Origin: an uncultured Clostridia bacterium
Lineage (GTDB): Bacteria; Bacillota; Clostridia; TANB77; CAG-508
Assembly: GCA_944388605.1 (NCBI GenBank)
Contig: CALXJJ010000003.1
Span: 3,091-67,090, forward strand
DNA: 64,000 bases
Direction: 5' to 3'
Shown here in pieces: positions 3,939-54,683 of this stretch. The notes under the pieces were generated by a model that saw only the letters and a list, made by a program, of their open reading frames with translations, did not search any database and had not been told where the DNA came from. The position numbers were made by a program, and so were the translations under genes. Numbering within the stretch: position 1 is the first letter of the stretch; every line of letters begins with the position of its first letter.

Positions 3939-4886
3939 TTAGTCTTCCTCTTTAGCGAAGTCTAATCCTAAAGAATGTAATTTATTTGTAACTTCATCTA
4001 AAGATTTCTTTCCTAGATTTCTTACTTTCATCATATCTTCTTCTGTCTTTGTTGCTAAATCTTCTACTGTTGAAATTCCAGCTCTTTTTAAACAATTGAA
4101 AGATCTTACTGATAATTCTAAATCTTCTATTGACATTTCAAGTACTTTTTCTTTCTTAGACTCCTCTTTTTCAACCATTACTTGAGTATTTCTTGCAGTT
4201 TCTGATAAATCAATAAATAATTCTAAATGTCCAACCATTACTTTAGCAGCTAAGCTTAAAGCTTCATATGGTTTTAAACTTCCATCTGTCCATACCTCTA
4301 TTGTTAATTTATCATAATCTACCATTTGACCAACTCTTGTGTTTTCAATTGAATAATTTACTTTCTTTACAGGTGTAAATATAGAATCTATTGGTAGAAC
4401 ATCTATAGCCTGATCTGGTTTTTTATTTTTTTCTGCCACATTATATCCTCTACCCATTTCGGCAGTCATTTCCATTTTCAATGAACCACCTTCTGCAATA
4501 GTAGCTATATGTAAGTCTGGATTCAATATTTCCACTGTTCCATCTGTTATAATATCACCTGCTGTCACTTCACCTTCACCTGAAAAGTCTATTCTTAAAA
4601 TTTTTTCTTCATTTTTATCAAGTTTTAACCTTACCATTTTTAAATTTATTATAATTTCTGGAACATCTTCTACAACATTTTCAATACTTGAAAATTCATG
4701 CATAACTCCATCTATTTTTACACTTGTTATAGCACTACCTGGTAATGAAGAAAGTAATATTCTTCTTAATGAGTTTCCTATTGTTACTCCATAACCACGC
4801 TCTAATGGCTCACATACAAATTTTCCATAATTTTTTTCATTGTCCATCTCTAAGCATTTTATATTTGGTTTTTCAAATTCTATCAT
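3939..4886 (-). CDS. rpoA: DNA-directed RNA polymerase subunit alpha
   Basis: 315 aa. [23 protein letters not shown] and [29 protein letters not shown]. Canonical position after rpsD. Confidence 0.97.
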
Positions 4887-9935: not shown

Positions 9936-10370
9936 TTATATCACCTCTGTCTTTCCACCTAAAGCTTCAATTTTTTCTTTTGCAGCTTTAGTAAATCTTA
10001 CAGCTTTAACTGTTAATTTCTTTTCAAGATTACCAGTAGCAAGAATAACTATTCCATCTTTCTTCTTACTAATGATACCATCTTTAATTAAACTTTCTGC
10101 TGTAACTTCTTCTGTAGTTGCTTTATTAAGCATTGTTAATGTTACTTCAACATAGTCTTTTGCATGTATATTAGTGAAACCTCTTTTTGGTAGTCTTCTA
10201 TATAATGGTGTTTGACCACCTTCGAAACCTCTTCTAACACCACCGCCAGATCTAGCCTTTTGACCTTTATGTCCTCTTCCAGAAGTCTTACCTAGTCCTG
10301 AACCTATTCCACGTCCAACTCTAGTCCTTGTTTTACTTACTTTAGCTGATCTTATTTCTCCTAGCTTCAT
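9936..10370 (-). CDS. rplO: 50S ribosomal protein L15
   Basis: [24 protein letters not shown]. The ATG at 10370 is preceded by AGGAGGTG; the track start at 10382 is a GTG inside that RBS. Confidence 0.95.
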
Positions 10371-10394
10371 GATGATTAGCACCTCCTATTTTAA

Positions 10395-10889
10395 TTATAA
10401 TATATCTTCTACTTTTTTATCTCTTTTTTTAGCCACTTGCTCTATTGTTTGCATACTTTTTAATCCTTCTATTGTAGCATAAACAACATTTCTTGGATTG
10501 TTAGTTCCTATAACTTTTGTTCTTATATCTCTATATCCTGCAAGTTCTAAAACTGGTCTAACGCTTCCTCCTGCTATAACTCCAGTACCTTCTGTAGCTG
10601 GTTTTAACATAACTTTAGCACTTCCAAACTTTCCAACATATTCGTGAGGAATTGTTGTTCCTACTAGTGGTACTTGTACTAAATTCTTTTTAGCTTCTTC
10701 TATAGCCTTTTTTATAGCATCTGGAACTTCTGCCGCTTTACCATTTCCTACACCTACACATCCAGCTCCATCTCCTACTACCACTACAGCACTAAATCTA
10801 AAAGTTCTACCACCTTTAACAACTTTAGCAACTCTATTTATAGCTACAACTTTCTCTTTTAATTCTGTTTGCTTTTCTTCGTTTTGCAC
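10395..10889 (-). CDS. rpsE: 30S ribosomal protein S5
   Basis: [25 protein letters not shown]. Confidence 0.97.
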
Positions 10890-19977: not shown

Positions 19978-20057
19978 TAATATATAACATCTATTGAGCA
20001 TAAATTTACTAAACTGATAAATATAAAAGTATAAATTTTAATGCTTTCCCATTTGCT

Positions 20058-21650
20058 CTATTTAATTCTTTCAAATATTGGTTCTATATTTTCAATATCT
20101 TTACATTTTTTTACTTGTATATATTCCCAGCAACATTCTTCTATTTCTAAGAATCTCCTAACTTTTTTAGATGACTCAGGCATAAAAGGTTCATATAAAT
20201 TAGATAAATTAGCAATAAGGTTACAACATGTATATATAGTATTATTAAATTCTTGTATATTCTCTTTTTGCTGTTTCCATGGCTGTTTTTCCTCATAAAA
20301 TTTATTTCCTTCTTCAACTAAATCTCTAATTAATAAAACTGCCTTTTTAAATTCCAAATTTTCAATTGCATTTCCCACATCTTTATATGCTTTTTCTATT
20401 AATTCCTTCATATATTTATTCATAACACCATCAGGTATTTGTTTTAATCCTTTATATTTTAAAGTTCTATTTATGAGATTTCCATATTTATTAACAACTT
20501 CCGCATTACTTATAGCAACAAATTCTTCAATAGAAAAATTACTATCCTTCCTTTCTGGTCCATTTCCTATTAGATAATATCTAATCATATCAGAATTATA
20601 ATTATCTAGCATCTGTCTTATTGTTATACCATTTCCTTTGGATTTAGATATTTTCTCTGAATTTATATTTAAGTATTGTGTTGCGACCATATAATCTGGC
20701 AATTTATAATCTTCTTCCAACGCTAATAATAAAGCTGGTAATATTATAGTATGAAAGGTTATATTGTCTTTTCCATGTGCCATAAAAATCAAATTATTTC
20801 TGTCATTTTTCCAATAATTTTCCCAGTTTAAACCTTTTTCAATACAAATTTTTTGACATGCTGTAATATATCCTAAAACAGCCTCTATCCATACATACAT
20901 TTTTTTGTCTTCAAATCCTTTAATAGGTATATCGATTCCCCATTCAAGATTTCTGGTTACTGCTTTTTCTGGCAAACCTTCTCTTAAATACTTTTCAGTT
21001 TCATTTTGAGAACTAATTCTCCAATTTTTTTTATTTTTTTCAACATATTTTTCAATCTTATTTTGTAATTTTCCCAATGCTAAATATAAATTCATATTTT
21101 CTTTTTGAACTGTTTCACTTCCACATGTCTGACATTTAGCCCCAATTAAGTCTTCTAACTTAGGCTCATATCCACAATCACACATATCTCCTTTAGTTTC
21201 TTTTCCACAAGAAGGACAAGTTAAAATCAGCTCTCTGTCTGCCACAAACTTATTGCAATGTTCGCAAAAAGGTTGTAAATCTTTTTTAGCATAAATATAT
21301 CCATTATCATACATCTTTTTAAACAACTCTTGTACTTTCTTTTTATGAAATTCATCTTCTGTTTTAGTATATAAATCATATGAAAACTGCATGTCATTAA
21401 AGCAATCTGTAAATTCTTTGTGATATGATTCTGATATTTCTTTAGGAGTTTTGTTTTCTTTTTTTGCTCTAATTGTAATAGGAGTACCATGGCAATCCGT
21501 TCCAGAAACATAAAGTACATTATCTCCAATTTGTCTATAATATCTTGCAAGAACATCTCCAGAAATTAATCCTGCTACATGTCCAACATGTAAAGAATTA
21601 TTAGCATAAGGCCATGCTCCTCCTATTAATATATTTCTTTTATTATGCAT
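20058..21650 (-). CDS. metG: Methionine--tRNA ligase (short form, no C-terminal tRNA-binding domain)
   Basis: HIGH-type motif ANNSLHVGHVAG, zinc knuckles CEHCNKF...CPSCG...CDCG...CQTCG, and KMSKS-type KISKSKGNG. Confidence 0.93.
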   Translation of the reverse strand: MHNKRNILIGGAWPYANNSLHVGHVAGLISGDVLARYYRQIGDNVLYVSGTDCHGTPITIRAKKENKTPKEISESYHKEFTDCFNDMQFSYDLYTKTEDEFHKKKVQELFKKMYDNGYIYAKKDLQPFCEHCNKFVADRELILTCPSCGKETKGDMCDCGYEPKLEDLIGAKCQTCGSETVQKENMNLYLALGKLQNKIEKYVEKNKKNWRISSQNETEKYLREGLPEKAVTRNLEWGIDIPIKGFEDKKMYVWIEAVLGYITACQKICIEKGLNWENYWKNDRNNLIFMAHGKDNITFHTIILPALLLALEEDYKLPDYMVATQYLNINSEKISKSKGNGITIRQMLDNYNSDMIRYYLIGNGPERKDSNFSIEEFVAISNAEVVNKYGNLINRTLKYKGLKQIPDGVMNKYMKELIEKAYKDVGNAIENLEFKKAVLLIRDLVEEGNKFYEEKQPWKQQKENIQEFNNTIYTCCNLIANLSNLYEPFMPESSKKVRRFLEIEECCWEYIQVKKCKDIENIEPIFERIK

Positions 21651-21943
21651 TTTTATTCCCCCTTAATTATATATTATTACTTAAATGCAGTGCATTTTTA
21701 ATACACTACTATTTTTATATTTATTCTGTAATTTCTATATCTTACTATATAAAATTTCTCATCCATAAAATAATTCATTCTATTTAATATTATATTCAAT
21801 TATCTTAATTTTTTCAATAAATTTTTAAATTTGGCAAATATATATCACACTTTACTGATAAATATATGCTTTAAAATACCAAACTATAGTTTATAATTTA
21901 ACATAAATTTTTAAATTTGGCAATGCTAGTTGGCAAATTTTTA

Positions 21944-22106
21944 TTATACAATAGGAAAGTTATCCTTTCCTATTGTATAAAAGTCGCTACGCTCTAACGA
22001 CTGCACACAATTTTACTTGCGTAAAATTGGCTTAGGAACAAATTTACTAAAAAGCCAACGAGAAAATATTAAATTAGTACAAATTTTAAGGCTTTCCGAT
22101 TTGTTC
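21944..22106 (-). repeat. GGAAAG/CTTTCC hairpin repeat family, long copy R2
   Basis: The minus strand starts GAACAAATCGGAAAGCCTTAAAATTTGTACTAATTT and ends CTTTCCTATTGTATAA. The left end is a perfect 16-bp palindrome, TTATACAATAGGAAAG/CTTTCCTATTGTATAA (21944-21980). The interior carries three further hairpins. Confidence 0.65.
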
Positions 22107-22205
22107 TTTTATTGGATTGTTTTCTAATCCATAGTATAATTTATTTAATTTACATATCTCCTCCTTCATTCACCCCAAAAATCTGATGTGCAGATAGAGT
22201 AAAGT

Positions 22206-23024: not shown

Positions 23025-23486
23025 CAGCCCCAAGGCTTTCAGCCATTTTTCTCATTTCTTTTGTTCTCCTTTTGCTTGTTTTTTATTATCTTTTTTCCTA
23101 CAACTTTTATTTATTATATACTTATTTCTCCTATTTTTGCAATACTTTTTTCTTTTATTTTCCTTTTGTATATTAATTCCTAATTTACAAATTTGGCACT
23201 TCCCATAAAATGTTAAAAGAATTATTAATTGGAATAATGCGTTTTTTTGCAAACTTTTCGCGTCAACAAATTTTATAATCTTCTTGCTAAATTTTAATTT
23301 AACATATTTTATTGAATAGTTTATTGTTGTTCGCTATAAAGAACATTTTATTGTAAGATACTTTACTTTCTTGTCACACAAAAATCTCTATTCCTATTGA
23401 TACTGTTTACTCCAAATAGTAACCCTTAATTTCCACACTTTTTCAATTGACATAATTAAGGTTTTTTAATTTTTTTTCAAAACATG

Positions 23487-23515
23487 TTGCAAATTTTCAA
23501 TAATAATTGTATAAT
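23487..23515 (+). promoter_or_regulatory. Sigma-A type promoter of tRNA-Trp
   Basis: TTGCAA (23487-92), a 17-nt spacer, then TATAAT (23510-15), about 25 nt before the tRNA 5' end. Confidence 0.6.
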
Positions 23516-23540: not shown

Positions 23541-23615
23541 AGGGGTATGATGTTAATGGTAGCATACTGGTCTCCAAAACCAAGTGTGAGGGTTCGAATC
23601 CTTCTACCCCTGCCA
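23541..23615 (+). tRNA. trnW: tRNA-Trp (anticodon CCA), with encoded CCA end
   Basis: Acceptor AGGGGTA/TACCCCT, anticodon loop CTCCAAA, T arm GAGGG-TTCGAAT-CCTTC, discriminator G plus CCA. There is one C-A mismatch at the top of the anticodon stem. Confidence 0.9.
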
Positions 23616-23619
23616 AAAC

Positions 23620-23790
23620 GGACAAATCTCGCTTTGCGAGAACTTTTCTCTACTTTTCTAACTTAACTATATATATTTAAGTTCTCGAAGAAGAGTAAAG
23701 ATTTGTCGACGCGAAAAATTGCATAGCAATTTTTCTGTGCAATGTTGTTTTTTATTGAATAAGAAAACTCGATTTTTCCTATTCAATAAA
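23620..23790 (-). repeat. About 170-bp multi-hairpin repeat, copy A (inverted relative to copy B at 45003)
   Basis: The reverse complement aligns end to end with 45003-45163, with roughly 90% identity by manual alignment plus a 10-nt and a few 1-2-nt indels. It begins 5 nt after the tRNA-Trp CCA. Confidence 0.85.
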
Positions 23791-23794
23791 AACT

Positions 23795-23832
23795 AAAAAA
23801 GCCTTAAAATATTGATTATTTAAGGCTTTTTT
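23795..23832. terminator. Bidirectional terminator hairpin shared by tRNA-Trp and whiA
   Basis: AAAAAAGCCTTAAA...TTTAAGGCTTTTTT, with A- and T-runs on both sides. It overlaps the whiA stop. Confidence 0.6.
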
Positions 23833-24677
23833 AGTTTTTTTGTTATTTCTTCTGCTATTTTTTCTATAGATTTTAATCTATGATTTATTCCAGATTTTCC
23901 TATTTTTTCTGTTAACATATGTCCTAATTCAGCAAGTGTTGCTTCAGGATTTTCTAACCTTAATTTAGCTACTTCTTGTAATTGCTCTGGAATTTTATTA
24001 AACTCATTATATTTCTGTATTATTTTAATTGCTTGTATTTGTTTTGCTGAGGCTTGTGCAGTTTTATTTAAGTTTGCAGTTTCACAATTTACTATTCTAT
24101 TAACATTATTCCTCATATCTCTTAATGCTCTTGCTTCTTCAAATTTAAGTACTGAAGTGTTAGCTCCTATGAATGCTAAAAATTTTGATATTTCATCTCC
24201 ATCTTTTATATATACAGAATTACCATTACTTTTTCTTATTCTTTTTACTTCTATACCATATTTATTTAGTATTTTACTTATTTTGTCCACTAATACATCT
24301 TCTTTTATATTTATTTCTAAATGATAATTATTTTTTGGTTCATTTATAGAACCATTCCCCATAAAAACTCCTCTTATATATGCTTTTTCTAATACTTCTT
24401 TACTTAAATTTATACTTTCTATTTTCAAATTATTTTTAAAGGTAACTATATAATTATTTCCTTTCACTTGTATATTATACTTTTCTATACCTATATTTTT
24501 AAGCAATTTTATAAATCTGTTTATATTATATTCATTTTCTGTTGCATATTCTATATTTTTATTTGTTTCTATTCTTTTATTAATCATGTACCCTTTAAAT
24601 TCTGCTAATACTGACTCTTTGTCCTTCAAATTTTTAATTTTGCTAAGTTCCTCTTTTACATCAAAACTAAAAGACAT
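23820..24677 (-). CDS. whiA: DNA-binding sporulation/cell-division regulator WhiA
   Basis: N-terminus MSFSFDVKEELSKI, a degenerate LAGLIDADG-like middle (YIRGVFMGNGSI) and a C-terminal HTH (LAELGHMLTEKIGKSGINHRLKSIEKIA). Confidence 0.9.
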   Translation of the reverse strand: MSFSFDVKEELSKIKNLKDKESVLAEFKGYMINKRIETNKNIEYATENEYNINRFIKLLKNIGIEKYNIQVKGNNYIVTFKNNLKIESINLSKEVLEKAYIRGVFMGNGSINEPKNNYHLEINIKEDVLVDKISKILNKYGIEVKRIRKSNGNSVYIKDGDEISKFLAFIGANTSVLKFEEARALRDMRNNVNRIVNCETANLNKTAQASAKQIQAIKIIQKYNEFNKIPEQLQEVAKLRLENPEATLAELGHMLTEKIGKSGINHRLKSIEKIAEEITKKLKKP

Positions 24678-31186: not shown

Positions 31187-31214
31187 GAATACATATAATA
31201 TTTATTAGAATATA

Positions 31215-31268
31215 GAACAAATCGGAAAGCCTTAAAATTTATATTAATTTTATCTTTCCTATTGTATA
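31215..31268 (+). repeat. GGAAAG/CTTTCC hairpin repeat family, short copy R3
   Basis: GAACAAATCGGAAAGCCTTAAAATTTATATTAATTTTATCTTTCCTATTGTAT. ACAAATCGGAAAG pairs with CTTTCCTATTGT. Confidence 0.65.
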
Positions 31269-32314: not shown

Positions 32315-32404
32315 ATAGTATTCCATTTTTTGCATTTTTATCATATAATGTATGTAGAGAAATATAAATATATTTTCTAATTATCTTATTTTACGACAAC
32401 AATA

Positions 32405-32470
32405 GAGCAAATTGGAAAGTCTTAAAACTTGTACTAATTTTATTTTTACTCTTTGACTTTCCTATTGTAT
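32405..32470 (+). repeat. GGAAAG/CTTTCC hairpin repeat family, copy R4
   Basis: GAGCAAATTGGAAAGTCTTAAAACTTGTACTAATTTTATTTTTACTCTTTGACTTTCCTATTGTAT. Confidence 0.65.
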
Positions 32471-40830: not shown

Positions 40831-42559
40831 ATGAATATAAAAAACTTTTTAAAACAAGTATTCTATCCCCAGGATTCTAAAGATTATGATTTTACTTTAC
40901 CAGAAACAACAAATCCTAGGCAAAATTTAGAAATTGATGATGAAAAAGTCAAAACAAATTATGATTCTCAAAGTGTTGATGAAGATATCTACAAAAATAC
41001 ACAAGAAATATTTCCAAGTGTAGATGTAAATTATGAATATATTAAAGTAAAATACAACACATTAATAAATAGTGATATTGTAACTAGAAAGTTTATTTTA
41101 AATATAAGGAACAAACAATATAAAGCTTTTATACTATACATCGACGGTATGGTTAATACTACAACTATTAATGATTTTATTCTAAAACCACTAATGCTTA
41201 AAAATTCTTCTAATAGCTTTGATGGTGAACAAAACAGAGTAGTTTCTGAAGCAATTAGTAATAATATAACTGTTCGCAGAATAAAAAAATTTGATATATC
41301 TGAATATGTCTCAAATTGTTTAATACCTCAAAACAATGTTACTGAATGTAAAGATTTTCAAAAAGCTATATCTGGTACAAATTCTGGTGATTGTATTCTT
41401 TTTATAGATACACTTAATATTGCATTTGATATTGAAGTAAAAGGTTTTGAAAAAAGGTCTCTTGGCGAACCTAACAATGAAATTGTAGTACGTGGTGCTC
41501 AAGTAGCTTTTACAGAAACAATTCGTACTAATACTTCTCTTTTAAGAAGATTTGTAAATAATGAAAATTTAATTATAGAAAATGTAGATGTTGGTAAAAT
41601 TAGTAAAACAAAATGTGCTATTTGTTATATTAAAAATATTGCAAATTCAGATTTAGTAGCAGAAGTAAAGTATAGAATTAATAATCTTAATATAGATTAT
41701 TTAATTTCTTCTGGTAAACTAGAACAATTAATTGAAGATAAAAATTCTACACTTCCACAATTAATAGCAACTGAAAGACCTGATAAAGCTACAAATTATC
41801 TAATAGAAGGTCGTGTTGTTATAATAGTAAATGGTAGTCCATATGTCTTAATTGCTCCAGCTGTGTTTACAGATTTTTTAAATTCACCTGAAGATCTTAA
41901 TTTAAAATATCAGTTTTCTAATTTGTTAAAATTTATTAGAATTATAGCTTTTATATTAACTCTATTATTACCTGGTATATATATTGCAATTACAAACTTT
42001 CACCAAGAATTTATACCTACAGAATTATTATTTGCTATTGTTGCTTCAAGAGAAGCAGTACCATTTCCTATAATATTTGAAATTTTTCTTATGGAATTTT
42101 CTTTTGAATTAATAAGAGAGGCAGGACTTAGAGTTCCATCACCTATAGGTCCTACTGTTCGGAATTGTTGGTGCTCTAATTTTAGGACAAGCAGCAGTGG
42201 AAGCAACAATTGTTAGTCCTATACTAATAATTATTGTCGCTATAACAGGAATAGCATCATTTGCTATACCAGACTTTTCATTGAGTTTTCATGCAAGAAT
42301 CTCTAGATTTATTTATATTATTTTTGGTTATATTGGTGGATTTTTGGGAATTGGAACAGCTATATGTATTCACATATTTATTTTAGCCAATATGAAGTCA
42401 TTTGGTGTAGAATATCTCTCTCCTTATTTTTCTAAAGCAAATAGTCTTAATAAAGGTATGATATTATCTCCTATATGGAAAAGACAATTCAGAGCTAATT
42501 TTTTGAATACAAAACGTAAAGAAAAACAAGATGATATTAGTATGAAATGGAAAGCATAA
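40831..42559 (+). pseudogene. gerAA: Spore germination protein, GerAA family, interrupted by a +1 frameshift at 42160
   Basis: Track ORFs 40831..42216 and 42197..42559 are the two halves. ...EAGLRVPSPIGPTV then continues out of frame. Removing C42160 restores [38 protein letters not shown], the conserved GerA core. Confidence 0.75.
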
Positions 42560-43689: not shown

Positions 43690-44988
43690 ATGCAAACTTT
43701 TAAAAAAATTTTAGTATCTATTATATTATTACTTTTGTTTATATTTATTTTTACTAATCCATATTTAAGTTTTCATAATATAGATAGCTTAGCATATGTA
43801 GTTGCACTTGGTTTAGACGTAGGAGAAACTAATAATCTTAAATTAAGTTTACAATTATATAAGCCTACTGAATCTTCTGGTAGTTCGAGTGGTTCTTCTC
43901 AAAGTTCAAATTCGTTAATAAATTCTGTTGATTGTTCATCTATTAGTTCTGGTATTAATTTATTTAATAGTTATATTAGTAAACAAATATCGCTTTCTCA
44001 TTGTAAAGTCATAGTAATCTCTGAAGAATTAGCAAAACAAGGTATTTCGAAATATCTATATACTCTTGTAAATAATGTGCAAATTGGTTCAGATTGTAAT
44101 ATAATAATTTCTAAATCTGATTCATATTCATTTTTAGAAAATTCAAAACCTACAGTTGAAAAATTGATTGCTAGATATTATGAGTCTGCTCCTATGTCTA
44201 GCTTATATACGGGTTTTACAGAAGATGTTACACTTGGAGATTTCTTTTCAGATTATACTGATTCTTTTAAACAACCTCACGCAATCCTAGGTTCTATAAA
44301 CACTTCTCAAACTCAAGATAATGTAACATCTTCTAATAATGCTAAAACAAATACTAGTTCTTCTACCGCTTCTATTACTGATAACACCAATTATGAAAAT
44401 GACAATAAAGATAGTGATTATATTGCCGGTGAAACACCTATAACCTCTGAAAATAATATAGAAAGCATGGGACTTGCGGTTTTTTACTCAGATAAACTTG
44501 TTGGTGAATTAAATGCTCTCGAAACATTATGTCATATGATAGTAGTAAATAAAATTCAAACAGCAGAAATTCAGATTTCTAGCCCTGTTAACCTTAATGA
44601 AAAAATAGATATCTCTTTAAAACAAAATCTTGCTCCTAAAATATCTTTAAAAATCATTAATAATACTCCATATATTAAAATAAATCTTAATATTAATGCC
44701 CGAATACGATCTATGGATGAAAACTCTGAACATTTAAATGAAGACAATATTTTAAAAATAGAAGAATCGGTTAATAAATATTTAGAAGAAAACATTTCTG
44801 CTTACTTGTATAAAACAGCTAAGCAATTTAATTCAGATATTGTTGGCTTTGGCAAATATGCTGTTGGATATTTTAAAACACTAGATGAATGGCAAGATTA
44901 TAATTGGCTATACAATTATAGAAATTCATTTTTTGATGTAACAGTAAACTCTGATATTAAGTCTACTTATCTTTTAATGGATAATTAA
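43690..44988 (+). CDS. gerAC: Spore germination protein, GerAC family, with no lipobox cysteine
   Basis: The ATG at 43690 follows AAGGAGG. Sequence MQTFKKILVSIILLLLFIFIFTNPYLSFHNIDSLAYVVALGLDVGE, matching the GerC pattern ...AxGxD. It contains Ser/Thr/Asn-rich inserts. Confidence 0.8.
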   Translation: MQTFKKILVSIILLLLFIFIFTNPYLSFHNIDSLAYVVALGLDVGETNNLKLSLQLYKPTESSGSSSGSSQSSNSLINSVDCSSISSGINLFNSYISKQISLSHCKVIVISEELAKQGISKYLYTLVNNVQIGSDCNIIISKSDSYSFLENSKPTVEKLIARYYESAPMSSLYTGFTEDVTLGDFFSDYTDSFKQPHAILGSINTSQTQDNVTSSNNAKTNTSSSTASITDNTNYENDNKDSDYIAGETPITSENNIESMGLAVFYSDKLVGELNALETLCHMIVVNKIQTAEIQISSPVNLNEKIDISLKQNLAPKISLKIINNTPYIKINLNINARIRSMDENSEHLNEDNILKIEESVNKYLEENISAYLYKTAKQFNSDIVGFGKYAVGYFKTLDEWQDYNWLYNYRNSFFDVTVNSDIKSTYLLMDN

Positions 44989-45002
44989 TTTATTCTTTTT
45001 TA

Positions 45003-45163
45003 TTGAATAGGAAAAATCGAATTTTTCTTATTCAACAAAAAACAACATTGCGCAGAAAAATTGCTATGCAATTTTTCTGTGTCGACAAATCTTTACTCTT
45101 CTTCGAGAACTTAAATATATATAGTGTTAAGTTAGAAAAGTCCTCGCGAAGCGAGATTTGTCC
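45003..45163 (+). repeat. About 165-bp multi-hairpin repeat, copy B
   Basis: TTGAATAGGAAAAATCGAATTTTTCTTATTCAA hairpin, CAGAAAAATTGC-TAT-GCAATTTTTCTG hairpin, and GACAAATCT...AGATTTGTC outer stem. It is the inverted partner of 23620-23790. Confidence 0.85.
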
Positions 45164-45214
45164 ATTTCAAATACATGTCATTATATAAATTCTTTTATGA
45201 AAGGAAAATTTTTT

Positions 45215-50819: not shown

Positions 50820-50850
50820 TGTTAAGAACAAAAGCGACATGATTAATTTA

Positions 50851-50969
50851 TATATTAGGAAAAGTTAACATAACTTTCCTAATATATAATAAATTACACT
50901 TCTTAGAAAACTTAAATATATACAGTTTAATTATATACTAGAAAAAGTTCTCTAAGAAGTGTAAAGTTT
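50851..50969 (+). repeat. Related multi-hairpin cassette that also serves as the mutS2 terminator
   Basis: TATATTAGGAAAAGTT-AACAT-AACTTTCCTAATATA hairpin, then ACACTTCTTAGA...TCTAAGAAGTGT followed by a T7 run. The core CTTCTTAGAAAACTTAAATATATACAG matches CTTCTTCGAGAACTTAAATATATATAG in copies A and B. Confidence 0.6.
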
Positions 50970-54467: not shown

Positions 54468-54683
54468 AAAAAAATACCCCACGTTTAAGCCGTAAGATGA
54501 ATGAAATTTTAAGGACCTGCTTGCACAGGTGGGTGTCTTGTTGAATGCTTATGGGCTTCTTACTACTAAATAGTGTAAGCTTGCACGCCACATTCAAAGT
54601 CGGACTCCCTTTTAATATTTGTTGGTTCTAAAATTCCAGTCTACACGCACTTCGTAGGGAAATTAATAACTTATTTAATTGTT
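54468..54683 (-). ncRNA. Candidate stand-alone structured sRNA of about 200 nt (rod-shaped, 6S-like architecture)
   Basis: A G+C-rich island at 54477-54659 whose ends and successive inner segments pair. The minus strand has a promoter-like TTGAAA-17-TGTTAATAT (54718-54690) and a U7 tract directly 3' of the closing stem. The family is not confirmed. Confidence 0.4.

Follow-up and report, generated by a model that had tools for sequence, protein, structure and literature searches.

Why do two nearly identical sequences of ~170 nt, each folding into several hairpins, stand as an inverted pair 21 kb apart in the same piece of a genome? The question is raised by a 64,000-nt stretch of DNA (the window) from an uncultured Clostridia bacterium known only from metagenomes, in which one of the two sequences, copy A, lies between the genes for tRNA-Trp and WhiA, and the other, copy B, directly follows the stop codon of gerAC (44986-44988) at the end of a gerA-type operon (44988). 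A first-pass annotation had suggested that the pair could support inversion of the DNA between them, or that each copy could act as a terminator cassette. Our analysis leads to a different answer. The inverted pair itself is ordinary: the two sequences are probably independent insertions of one non-coding, non-autonomous mobile repeat that settles 3' of hairpins. The family behind the pair, dispersed in uncultured gut Clostridia and apparently undescribed, is moderately interesting.

A dispersed family of multi-hairpin repeats

Alignment with MAFFT of the reverse complement of positions 23600-23810 against positions 44985-45185 gave one continuous match, running from the T-run and first hairpin (M1) to the ends ...GAGATTTGTCC / GCGAGATTTGTCC, and confirmed that the reported pair is real. 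The copies are ~93% identical and share a longest identical run of ~45 nt. They differ by one 10-nt and three 1-2-nt indels, as described before, and by ~7 substitutions rather than the nine or so first counted; copy B is the one without the 10-nt AGAAAAGTAG segment. A BLASTN search of the window with copy B returned E = 1e-54 for a 145-nt match and 6e-07 for another that covers the final 30 nt. Folding into three modules (M1, M2 and M3) likewise held up, with z-scores of -6.5 to -7.2 against dinucleotide shuffles for all four strands of the two copies. Neither copy contains an open reading frame (ORF) of note or a promoter-like site. In same-species contigs from ENA metagenome samples (99.7% identical to the window), copy B occupies the same site in the 10 contigs shown; the sequence of copy A is identical in two other metagenome contigs.

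To place the pair in a wider context, we searched a one-genome-per-species collection for a 24-nt pattern taken from the middle of the element (CTTCTTMGARAACTTAAATATATA). Among the matches listed, the ~170-nt unit occurs at no fewer than 80 loci (at least 80) in 26 metagenome-assembled genomes (MAGs), all species representatives, with at least 12 exact-pattern copies in the richest of them, which identifies it as a generic multi-copy repeat. These MAGs are titled as uncultured Clostridia, Eubacteriales or Bacillota from human, chicken and mouse gut-type projects. None is the window's species: the best DNA identity over genes is 66-79%, and orthologous proteins are ~40-75% identical to those of the window. 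A profile of the 131-nt core, run with nhmmer over the window and 575 kb of loci, recovered 83 strong copies, 5-6 of which had not been seeded by the pattern. One metagenome sample yielded 15 contigs with the element, often at the contig end, as expected since repeats break assemblies. BLAST searches with the core against plasmid and phage collections and a scan of viral contigs gave no match, and no account of a comparable repeat in Clostridia came up in literature searches. With Rfam, whether at the gathering or at permissive thresholds, only chance hairpin matches emerged, and no family scored even a tenth of the threshold margin.

Nearly every match has the same layout, namely a T-tract, the M1 hairpin, an A-run and the near-invariant core. 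M1 combines a conserved inner stem (ATAGGAAAA/TTTTCCTAT) with a variable outer stem that is kept paired. The core reads CAACGTTGCACAG, M2 (AAAAATTGC-NNN-GCAATTTTT), CGCGTC, M3 (GACAAATCTTTACGCTTCTTCGAGAACTT...AAGTTCTCGCGAAGCGAGATTTGTC) and C, where the linker after the A-run contains TTGCACAG and M2 is a 10-12-bp hairpin. M3 is a ~90-nt imperfect palindrome that ends with a GCGAAGC mini-hairpin followed by ATTTGTCC. Its arms (GACAAATCT..CGAGAACTT / AAGTTCTCG..AGATTTGTC) give it the form of a long hairpin of two inverted units with invariant stems, and M1 and M2 accompany it in every case. Many copies are truncated, internally deleted or nested; in one of them, M3 of a sister family (see below) sits within the M3 loop of the present family, family 1. 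As a separate observation, a repeat of ~85 nt (CAATAYGAAAC...ATTTTCAAAA) lies inside the M1 loop and splits the hairpin at loci L018, L051, L055, L074 and L089; its sequence recurs at several loci.

The core helices never vary, so that covariation says nothing about the structure of the core. M1 covaries strongly: 20 copies have GC and 16 have AU at pair 32/66, 25 have UA and 18 have GC at pair 34/64, and 25 have AU and 24 have UA at pair 36/62. None of 500 shuffles reached the observed covariation score. The loops of M1 and M2 occur in both orientations among the copies. Among samples of the species that the window comes from, a loop of copy B is flipped from TAT to ATA in two, and a stem pair has changed from A-T to G-C, in compensatory fashion, in another; together these changes point to events templated by DNA hairpins.

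Comparing the cores of different species pair by pair gave a median identity of 92%, although orthologous genes of these MAGs agree at just 66-76% of DNA positions. Where sister species carry a copy at an orthologous site, the two copies have drifted apart about as far as the sequence on either side (91% versus 91%; 97% versus 91-93%), indicating that individual copies are not strongly constrained. Judged from these comparisons, the likeness across the family must reflect recent copying off a conserved master sequence, horizontal spread, or both. TTACTC and other states are common to the two window copies and found in no other aligned copy, which makes copies A and B each other's closest relatives and indicates that they arose within this lineage.

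Landing sites behind genes and hairpins

We then examined the position of the element relative to genes, using long ORFs as a gene proxy suited to DNA of 27% G+C. In 61 of 73 cases the gene upstream points the same way as the element, and the 64 fully scored contexts divide into 44 (+,+), 10 (+,-), 8 (-,-) and 2 (-,+). The core usually starts 50-150 nt past the upstream stop codon. The 38 nt before the T-tract fold with a mean of -8.2 kcal/mol, compared to -2.7 kcal/mol for shuffles, and a hairpin closes within 3 nt of the T-tract in 24 of 39 automatically scored copies, or ~40 of 63 when our own reading of the remaining copies is added. The upstream hairpins are unique sequences, indicating that they are the neighbours' own terminators. 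The T-tract is a mere 5-8 nt long, which indicates that terminator and element share it.

In the window, copy A comes after the whiA terminator hairpin, and copy B comes straight after the gerAC stop. The 38 nt upstream of the copy A T-run, at the end of whiA, fold at -11.9 kcal/mol, compared to -1.9 for shuffles. The adjacency of the copies to tRNA-Trp and gerAC noted in the first-pass annotation is correct: the GGAC end of copy A begins at 23620, with 4 spacer nt between it and tRNA-Trp, and copy B begins with its T-run, ahead of the M1 stem (Table 1). Downstream of copy B lie the minus-strand genes for a flavin reductase and RNase R. The two copies are on opposite strands of a single replichore, each in the sense direction of its upstream gene, and they are mutually inverted because whiA and gerAC are transcribed in opposite directions.

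Several comparisons argue that the element moves. In another species (locus L066) a copy stands between gerAC and the RNase R gene in the opposite orientation, sense to RNase R, and is an independent insertion into the equivalent region. Two intergenic sites are filled in one MAG and tightly packed without the element in another (L027/L047 and L086/L013). In addition, two sister families, 2a and 2b, have other sequences arranged in the same order, with M1, a TGCACA linker, M2 and an M3 palindrome ending in ATTGTTC or ATTTGTTC. For family 2b, comparison of L064 with L066, from sister species, revealed a precise insertion of the whole M1-to-M3 unit, in which GTCC[unit]TTTCAC stands against an empty GTCCTTTCAC, with no duplication or at most TT. 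The unit had inserted right behind the ...GATTTGTCC that closes a family-1 copy. This pair shows that such composites move as one piece and land 3' of a hairpin, and it explains the tandem arrays.

No direct repeats flank the 53 aligned family-1 copies, and the left end of the unit (M1, RTKGWATAGGAAAA...) does not recur in inverted form at its right end (...GCGAAGCGAGATTTGTCC); inverted arms, ~26 nt long and imperfect, are confined to M3. A classical miniature inverted-repeat transposable element derived from a DDE-transposase insertion sequence was rejected, as the element lacks terminal inverted repeats and a target duplication and resembles this class only in being small, non-coding and present in many copies.

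Table 1. Repeat copies, their parts and neighbouring features in the window
Feature	Position	Strand	Remarks
Copy A, family-1 element	23620..23792	-	Sense to whiA; nhmmer core match 23750-23620, 144 bits
Copy A, M3	23620-23707		Plus-strand coordinates
Copy A, M2	23712-23737		Plus-strand coordinates
Copy A, linker	23738-23747		Plus-strand coordinates
Copy A, A-run	23748-23753		T6 on plus strand
Copy A, M1 hairpin	23754-23787		Plus-strand coordinates
Copy A, shared T-run	23788-23792		A5 on plus strand
Copy B, family-1 element	44996..45163	+	Sense to gerAC; nhmmer core match 45040-45163, 111 bits
Copy B, T-run	44996-45001	+	
Copy B, M1	45002-45036	+	Stem start 45002/45003
Copy B, A-run	45037-45042	+	
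Copy B, linker	Between A-run and M2	+	Contains TTGCGCAG
Copy B, M2	45053-45079	+	
Copy B, M3	45084-45163	+	
tRNA-Trp (CCA anticodon)	23541..23615	+	3' end faces antisense side of copy A
whiA	23820-24677	-	
Terminator-like hairpin at whiA end	23797..23833	-	GCCTTAAA...TTTAAGGC then T6; copy A starts just beyond
Weak remnant, M2 right arm/M3 left arm junction	23249..23274	+	GCAAACTTTTCGCGTCAACAAATTTT; 22/25 nt, 8.8 bits, E = 3.5e-4 (271-nt search space)
Stand-alone palindrome resembling inner M3	50894..50964	.	TTACACTTCTTAGAAAACTT...AAGTTCTCTAAGAAGTGTAA; core positions 54-115, 21.7 bits
Solitary M1-like hairpins, no core attached	2702-2743 and 50848-50889		TTATATATTRGGAAA...TTCCTAATATATAA; latter just before 50894-50964 palindrome
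Family 2a, full copy	21941-22119	+	Ends ...CCGATTTGTTC
Family 2a, partial copies	2766-2830, 20028-20062, 31212-31260, 32397-32462		

The degenerate partial copy previously proposed at 23249-23295 contracts to the weak remnant listed in Table 1. It falls in a region (23200-23340) upstream of tRNA-Trp that looks like decayed repeat debris; nearer the tRNA gene, 26 nt upstream of it, is a sigma-70-type promoter match (TTGCAA, 17 nt, TATAAT) at 23487-23515 (+). Elsewhere in the window, a 6S RNA gene (Rfam RF00013, 104 bits) lies at 54472-54663 (-), separated from prmC by proS and 29 kb. In another species (L024/L034) a family-1 copy lies directly downstream of the 6S region and beside prmC, at a synteny breakpoint relative to the window. 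In the 54-55 kb region of the window, comparison of L012:1-1124 with L003 showed a strain polymorphism, in which an IS110-family transposase (DEDD_Tnp_IS110 / Transposase_20) replaces a 279-aa gene in one metagenome; the junction of this insertion is unrelated to the hairpin repeats, and it was set aside as a candidate. The GerA-family protein at 40831-42559 (+) is encoded by two overlapping ORFs of 461 and 120 aa, both matching PF03323, in the ten contigs shown, so that a fixed frameshift or a split gene seems likelier than an error of assembly. Finally, strand asymmetry is very strong: plus-strand GC skew is ~-0.35 for minus-strand genes and ~+0.08 for plus-strand genes, which places the window on one replichore with the minus strand leading.

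A candidate mechanism and its rivals

We consider it probable that the unit inserts whole and in one orientation, immediately 3' of an existing hairpin and T-rich tract. In most cases this hairpin is an intrinsic terminator that belongs to the gene upstream; in some it is the last hairpin of an element already in place, which gives rise to tandem arrays. Landing there puts the element at a safe site behind the gene. In the mechanism that we propose, movement would proceed through single-stranded DNA and be catalysed in trans by a Y1/HUH enzyme of the type of the REP-associated tyrosine transposases (RAYTs; REP, repetitive extragenic palindromic) or of IS200/IS605. Base pairs that span the foot of M1 are predicted between the target tract (T6 or KTYC) and the 4-6 nt after M1 (A6 in family 1, GAAC in the sister family). 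In family 1, between 42 and 50 of the 53 copies are paired at each position of A6 against T6. In family 2b, GAAC faces the flanks GTCC, GTCC, TTTC, GTTC and GTTC (n=5 copies), and the filled and empty sites show that the flank existed before insertion. It is possible, as far as these alignments go, that the nucleotides after M1 act as a guide that pairs with the target.

The ends of the unit are also suggestive. Its last hairpin stops 8 nt short of the 3' end, and the corresponding distance at the right end of IS608 is 10 nt (PMC3201880); GCGAAGC is an extraordinarily stable DNA mini-hairpin (PMC13037366). With no terminal repeats, no clear duplication, hairpins near both ends, a fixed polarity and a target outside the element, the family resembles IS200/IS605 single-strand transposition, albeit with a different geometry.

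A candidate enzyme came from a tblastn search with a RAYT-like query, which identified a Y1_Tnp ORF at 7276-7998 of L076 (BRZ_GP bin29), 2.4 kb from an element copy. This ORF scores 46 bits against Pfam PF01797 (cutoff 23), and of the NCBIfam models the one for REP-associated tyrosine transposases fits it best, with 67.8 bits, short of the cutoff of 80 bits. Relatives of the gene, 46-99% identical, occur once each at one site in every relative examined, in the order signal peptidase, holB, PSP1, ferredoxin, Y1 (L093-L098 and L102/L103, around 4001-4800 or 10001-10768). The gene is bracketed by inverted repeats with a GGGGACG core ('REP-G'), 60 nt long and 92% complementary in L102, and inverted repeats around a single-copy Y1 gene are the classic RAYT arrangement. 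The GGGGACG repeat is multi-copy in some MAGs and forms REPIN-like doublets, for example at L024:5777-5915 between whiA and prmC. One sample, BRZ_D, has the RAYT-like gene and also gave an element-bearing MAG. The TTTTTTCCCTATTCAAAAA iterons in the L102 bracket resemble the M1 arm, a similarity that we treat as a lead only.

Further searches for a parent or partner gave negative results. The RAYT-like loci L093-L098 and L102 contain no match to the element core, and the element does not bracket the RAYT gene there. A tblastn search of the window and 80 loci with an IS608-like TnpA query found nothing, and clustering of 638 ORFs flanking copies revealed no recurrent family. A metagenome scan for M2 followed by non-element sequence also found nothing, in a collection that holds few copies and therefore has low power. 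Likeness to a dif/Xer site, an integron attC site and a sigma-H promoter was considered from the sequence and dropped since the motifs misfit.

Several points weigh against the proposed mechanism or the mobile-repeat interpretation on which it builds. No transposase is tied to the element family; the GGGGACG repeat differs from the element and is absent from the window, and the RAYT-like gene is known from element-bearing relatives, not from the window's own organism. For family 1 there is no precise filled/empty pair, as the two empty sites are in distant species, also lack the terminator and leave the boundaries undefinable. The complementarity between guide and target could be merely the outer end of the M1 palindrome, and in the sister family it concerns five copies. 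A core that is near-identical across genera would also fit a sequence-specific host function. Relative to replication, 44 copies are leading-like, 5 lagging-like and 32 ambiguous, a count that depends on noisy per-locus GC skew and is confounded with gene orientation. On balance, the complete scheme, in which composite miniature elements of an undescribed class move via single-stranded DNA, choose the T-tract by an A6/GAAC guide, are driven by a domesticated single-copy RAYT-like Y1 enzyme and have spread across Clostridia genera, is tentative, and we regard it as possible but doubtful.

Among the rival explanations, it is rather unlikely that the element is a structure serving the host at gene ends. 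It could then be a cassette for termination or insulation, a barrier to 3' exonucleases or a site where proteins bind, roles that have been proposed for REP/BIME (bacterial interspersed mosaic element) and BOX sequences, and selection would account for its spread and retention. The sense position just after genes, the very stable folds on both strands and the M1 pairing kept by compensatory change all accord with this explanation, and the tie to gene 3' ends vindicates that part of the earlier terminator-cassette proposal. On the sense strand, however, the T-run precedes M1 instead of following it, and no terminator-like site was called inside the element. Terminator-like sites are confined to the antisense strand, where the GCGAAGC hairpin is followed by ACTTTTCT and M2 by GTTGTTTTTT. 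In copy A the antisense hairpin TCTCGCTTTGCGAGA plus ACTTTTCTCT, which begins 11 nt past the CCA end of tRNA-Trp, may well stop the tRNA-Trp transcript, and the antisense hairpins of copy B could stop converging transcription from the flavin-reductase side. Such hairpins with T-rich tracts could end convergent transcripts in general, yet convergent contexts make up only 10 of the 64 that were fully scored. Read in its sense direction, the element comes downstream of a complete terminator, and thus does not supply one and would rarely be transcribed. The drift of orthologous copies, about equal to that of their flanks, the many truncated, internally deleted and nested copies, and the related species without the element at the same intergenic sites argue further against a host function, although individual copies may have been co-opted.

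We consider it improbable that the element is a multi-copy small-RNA gene or the RNA part of a mobile system, for example a guide, scaffold or retroelement RNA, copied via RNA onto T-tracts. Class C group II introns settle directly behind the hairpin of an intrinsic terminator, oriented like the gene upstream, and this orientation-specific, terminator-following signature, together with a core conserved in sequence across genera and an A-run complementary to the target T-tract, is what such an origin would have in its favour. Group II introns, in contrast, are at least 600 nt long, carry ribozyme domains and usually encode a reverse transcriptase, and a ribozyme intron could not be nearly as short as 170 nt. 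The searches revealed no group II intron domains, no intron model matched even at E = 10, and no Rfam family came near threshold; a class C intron was rejected accordingly. The copies contain no promoter-like site, no reverse transcriptase or other protein family recurs beside them, and the loop flips point to DNA events.

Least probable of all is an inversion switch, in which homologous or site-specific recombination between copies A and B would flip the 21-kb whiA-to-gerA segment (housekeeping and sporulation genes, encoding WhiA, PrmC, ProS, TsaE, a TsaB/D-like protein, a GNAT protein, a Lon-like protease, Asd, DapA, DapB, SpoIVA and GerA-type proteins): the copies are inverted, ~93% identical and share an identical run long enough for occasional RecA-dependent exchange, and in another species (L024) an element copy lies where synteny breaks, between prmC and the 6S RNA region, but the repeat is dispersed genome-wide with an orientation that tracks the neighbouring gene, no recombinase gene lies in or beside the segment, and the replication part of the GC skew is not reversed (r = -0.116 inside 23.8-45.0 kb, -0.137 outside). 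Nor did contigs of the same species show both orientations. All 22 of them, from independent samples, keep the junctions of the window (2 across junction A; 20 across junction B, of which 10 are shown and 10 were collapsed as similar), and copies A and B retain their own diagnostic differences in them, with no chimeric A/B copies seen. Rare RecA-mediated inversion of the segment may still occur, given the ~45-nt identical run.

Reading the pair as insertions of a mobile repeat removes the unsupported idea of an invertible whiA/germinant-receptor segment of 21 kb and explains the odd hairpin clusters nearby. It also adds, to a clade known from metagenomes only, an intergenic mobile repeat family that breaks assemblies, marks synteny breakpoints and settles, in the sense orientation, at an unusually exact spot, the T-tract of an intrinsic terminator. 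If guide pairing and Y1/HUH mobilisation were true, the family would tie REP/RAYT biology, so far mainly a matter of Proteobacteria, to Firmicutes, and would offer a compact natural example of target choice by structure plus base pairing, with re-programmable hairpin-adjacent targeting across genera of gut Clostridia.

Comparison with known systems

One close parallel is offered by REP and REPIN elements mobilised by RAYT (Y1 HUH) transposases (PMC3116915, PMC3337134, PMC3333891). Like these, the element is short, extragenic, hairpin-forming and multi-copy, and forms a population around a conserved master sequence; its M3 has the layout of a REPIN, in that a spacer separates two inverted arms, though the unvarying stems neither support nor contradict pairing, and relatives that bear the element have a single-copy, syntenic RAYT-like gene between inverted repeats. 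Unlike them, it is a three-module composite of ~170 nt with fixed polarity rather than a simple inverted REP doublet, it has no GTAG-type 5' motif, and the GGGGACG repeat that brackets the RAYT-like gene is a different sequence. Moreover, the element core is near-identical across genera, whereas RAYT-flanking repeats change between species.

A second parallel is provided by the ends of the IS200/IS605 family and its miniature derivatives, the palindrome-associated transposable elements (PATEs; PMC3201880, PMC5027513). Common to both are the absence of terminal inverted repeats and of a clear duplication, hairpins near both ends (8 nt from the end here, 10 nt in IS608), and insertion in one orientation 3' of a short outside target that is complementary to a tract beside the left hairpin. 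The differences concern geometry and partners: the putative guide lies 3' rather than 5' of the left hairpin, this hairpin abuts the target instead of standing 19 nt away, the target is a hairpin plus T-tract rather than a bare tetranucleotide, and neither an autonomous parent nor an IS200-type tnpA was found in ~640 kb of element-rich DNA.

Similarities also extend to mosaic intergenic repeats such as the BIMEs of E. coli, the BOX elements of pneumococci and bcr1 of Bacillus cereus, the last of which duplicates a TTTAT target. These repeats share with the element a modular build, a position after genes and strong secondary structure; they number in the tens and combine with other repeat families in tandem or nested arrays. 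No sequence relationship between them and the element was detected (no Rfam, plasmid or phage match), and the hosts of the element are uncultured low-GC gut Clostridia; abutment on a terminator T-tract and strict polarity are not known for BIMEs, BOX or bcr1. That landing site is the one used by class C group II introns, from which the element is set apart by its length of 170 nt.

Taken together, these comparisons describe a small, non-autonomous intergenic repeat that departs from each of its closest counterparts in a defining feature.

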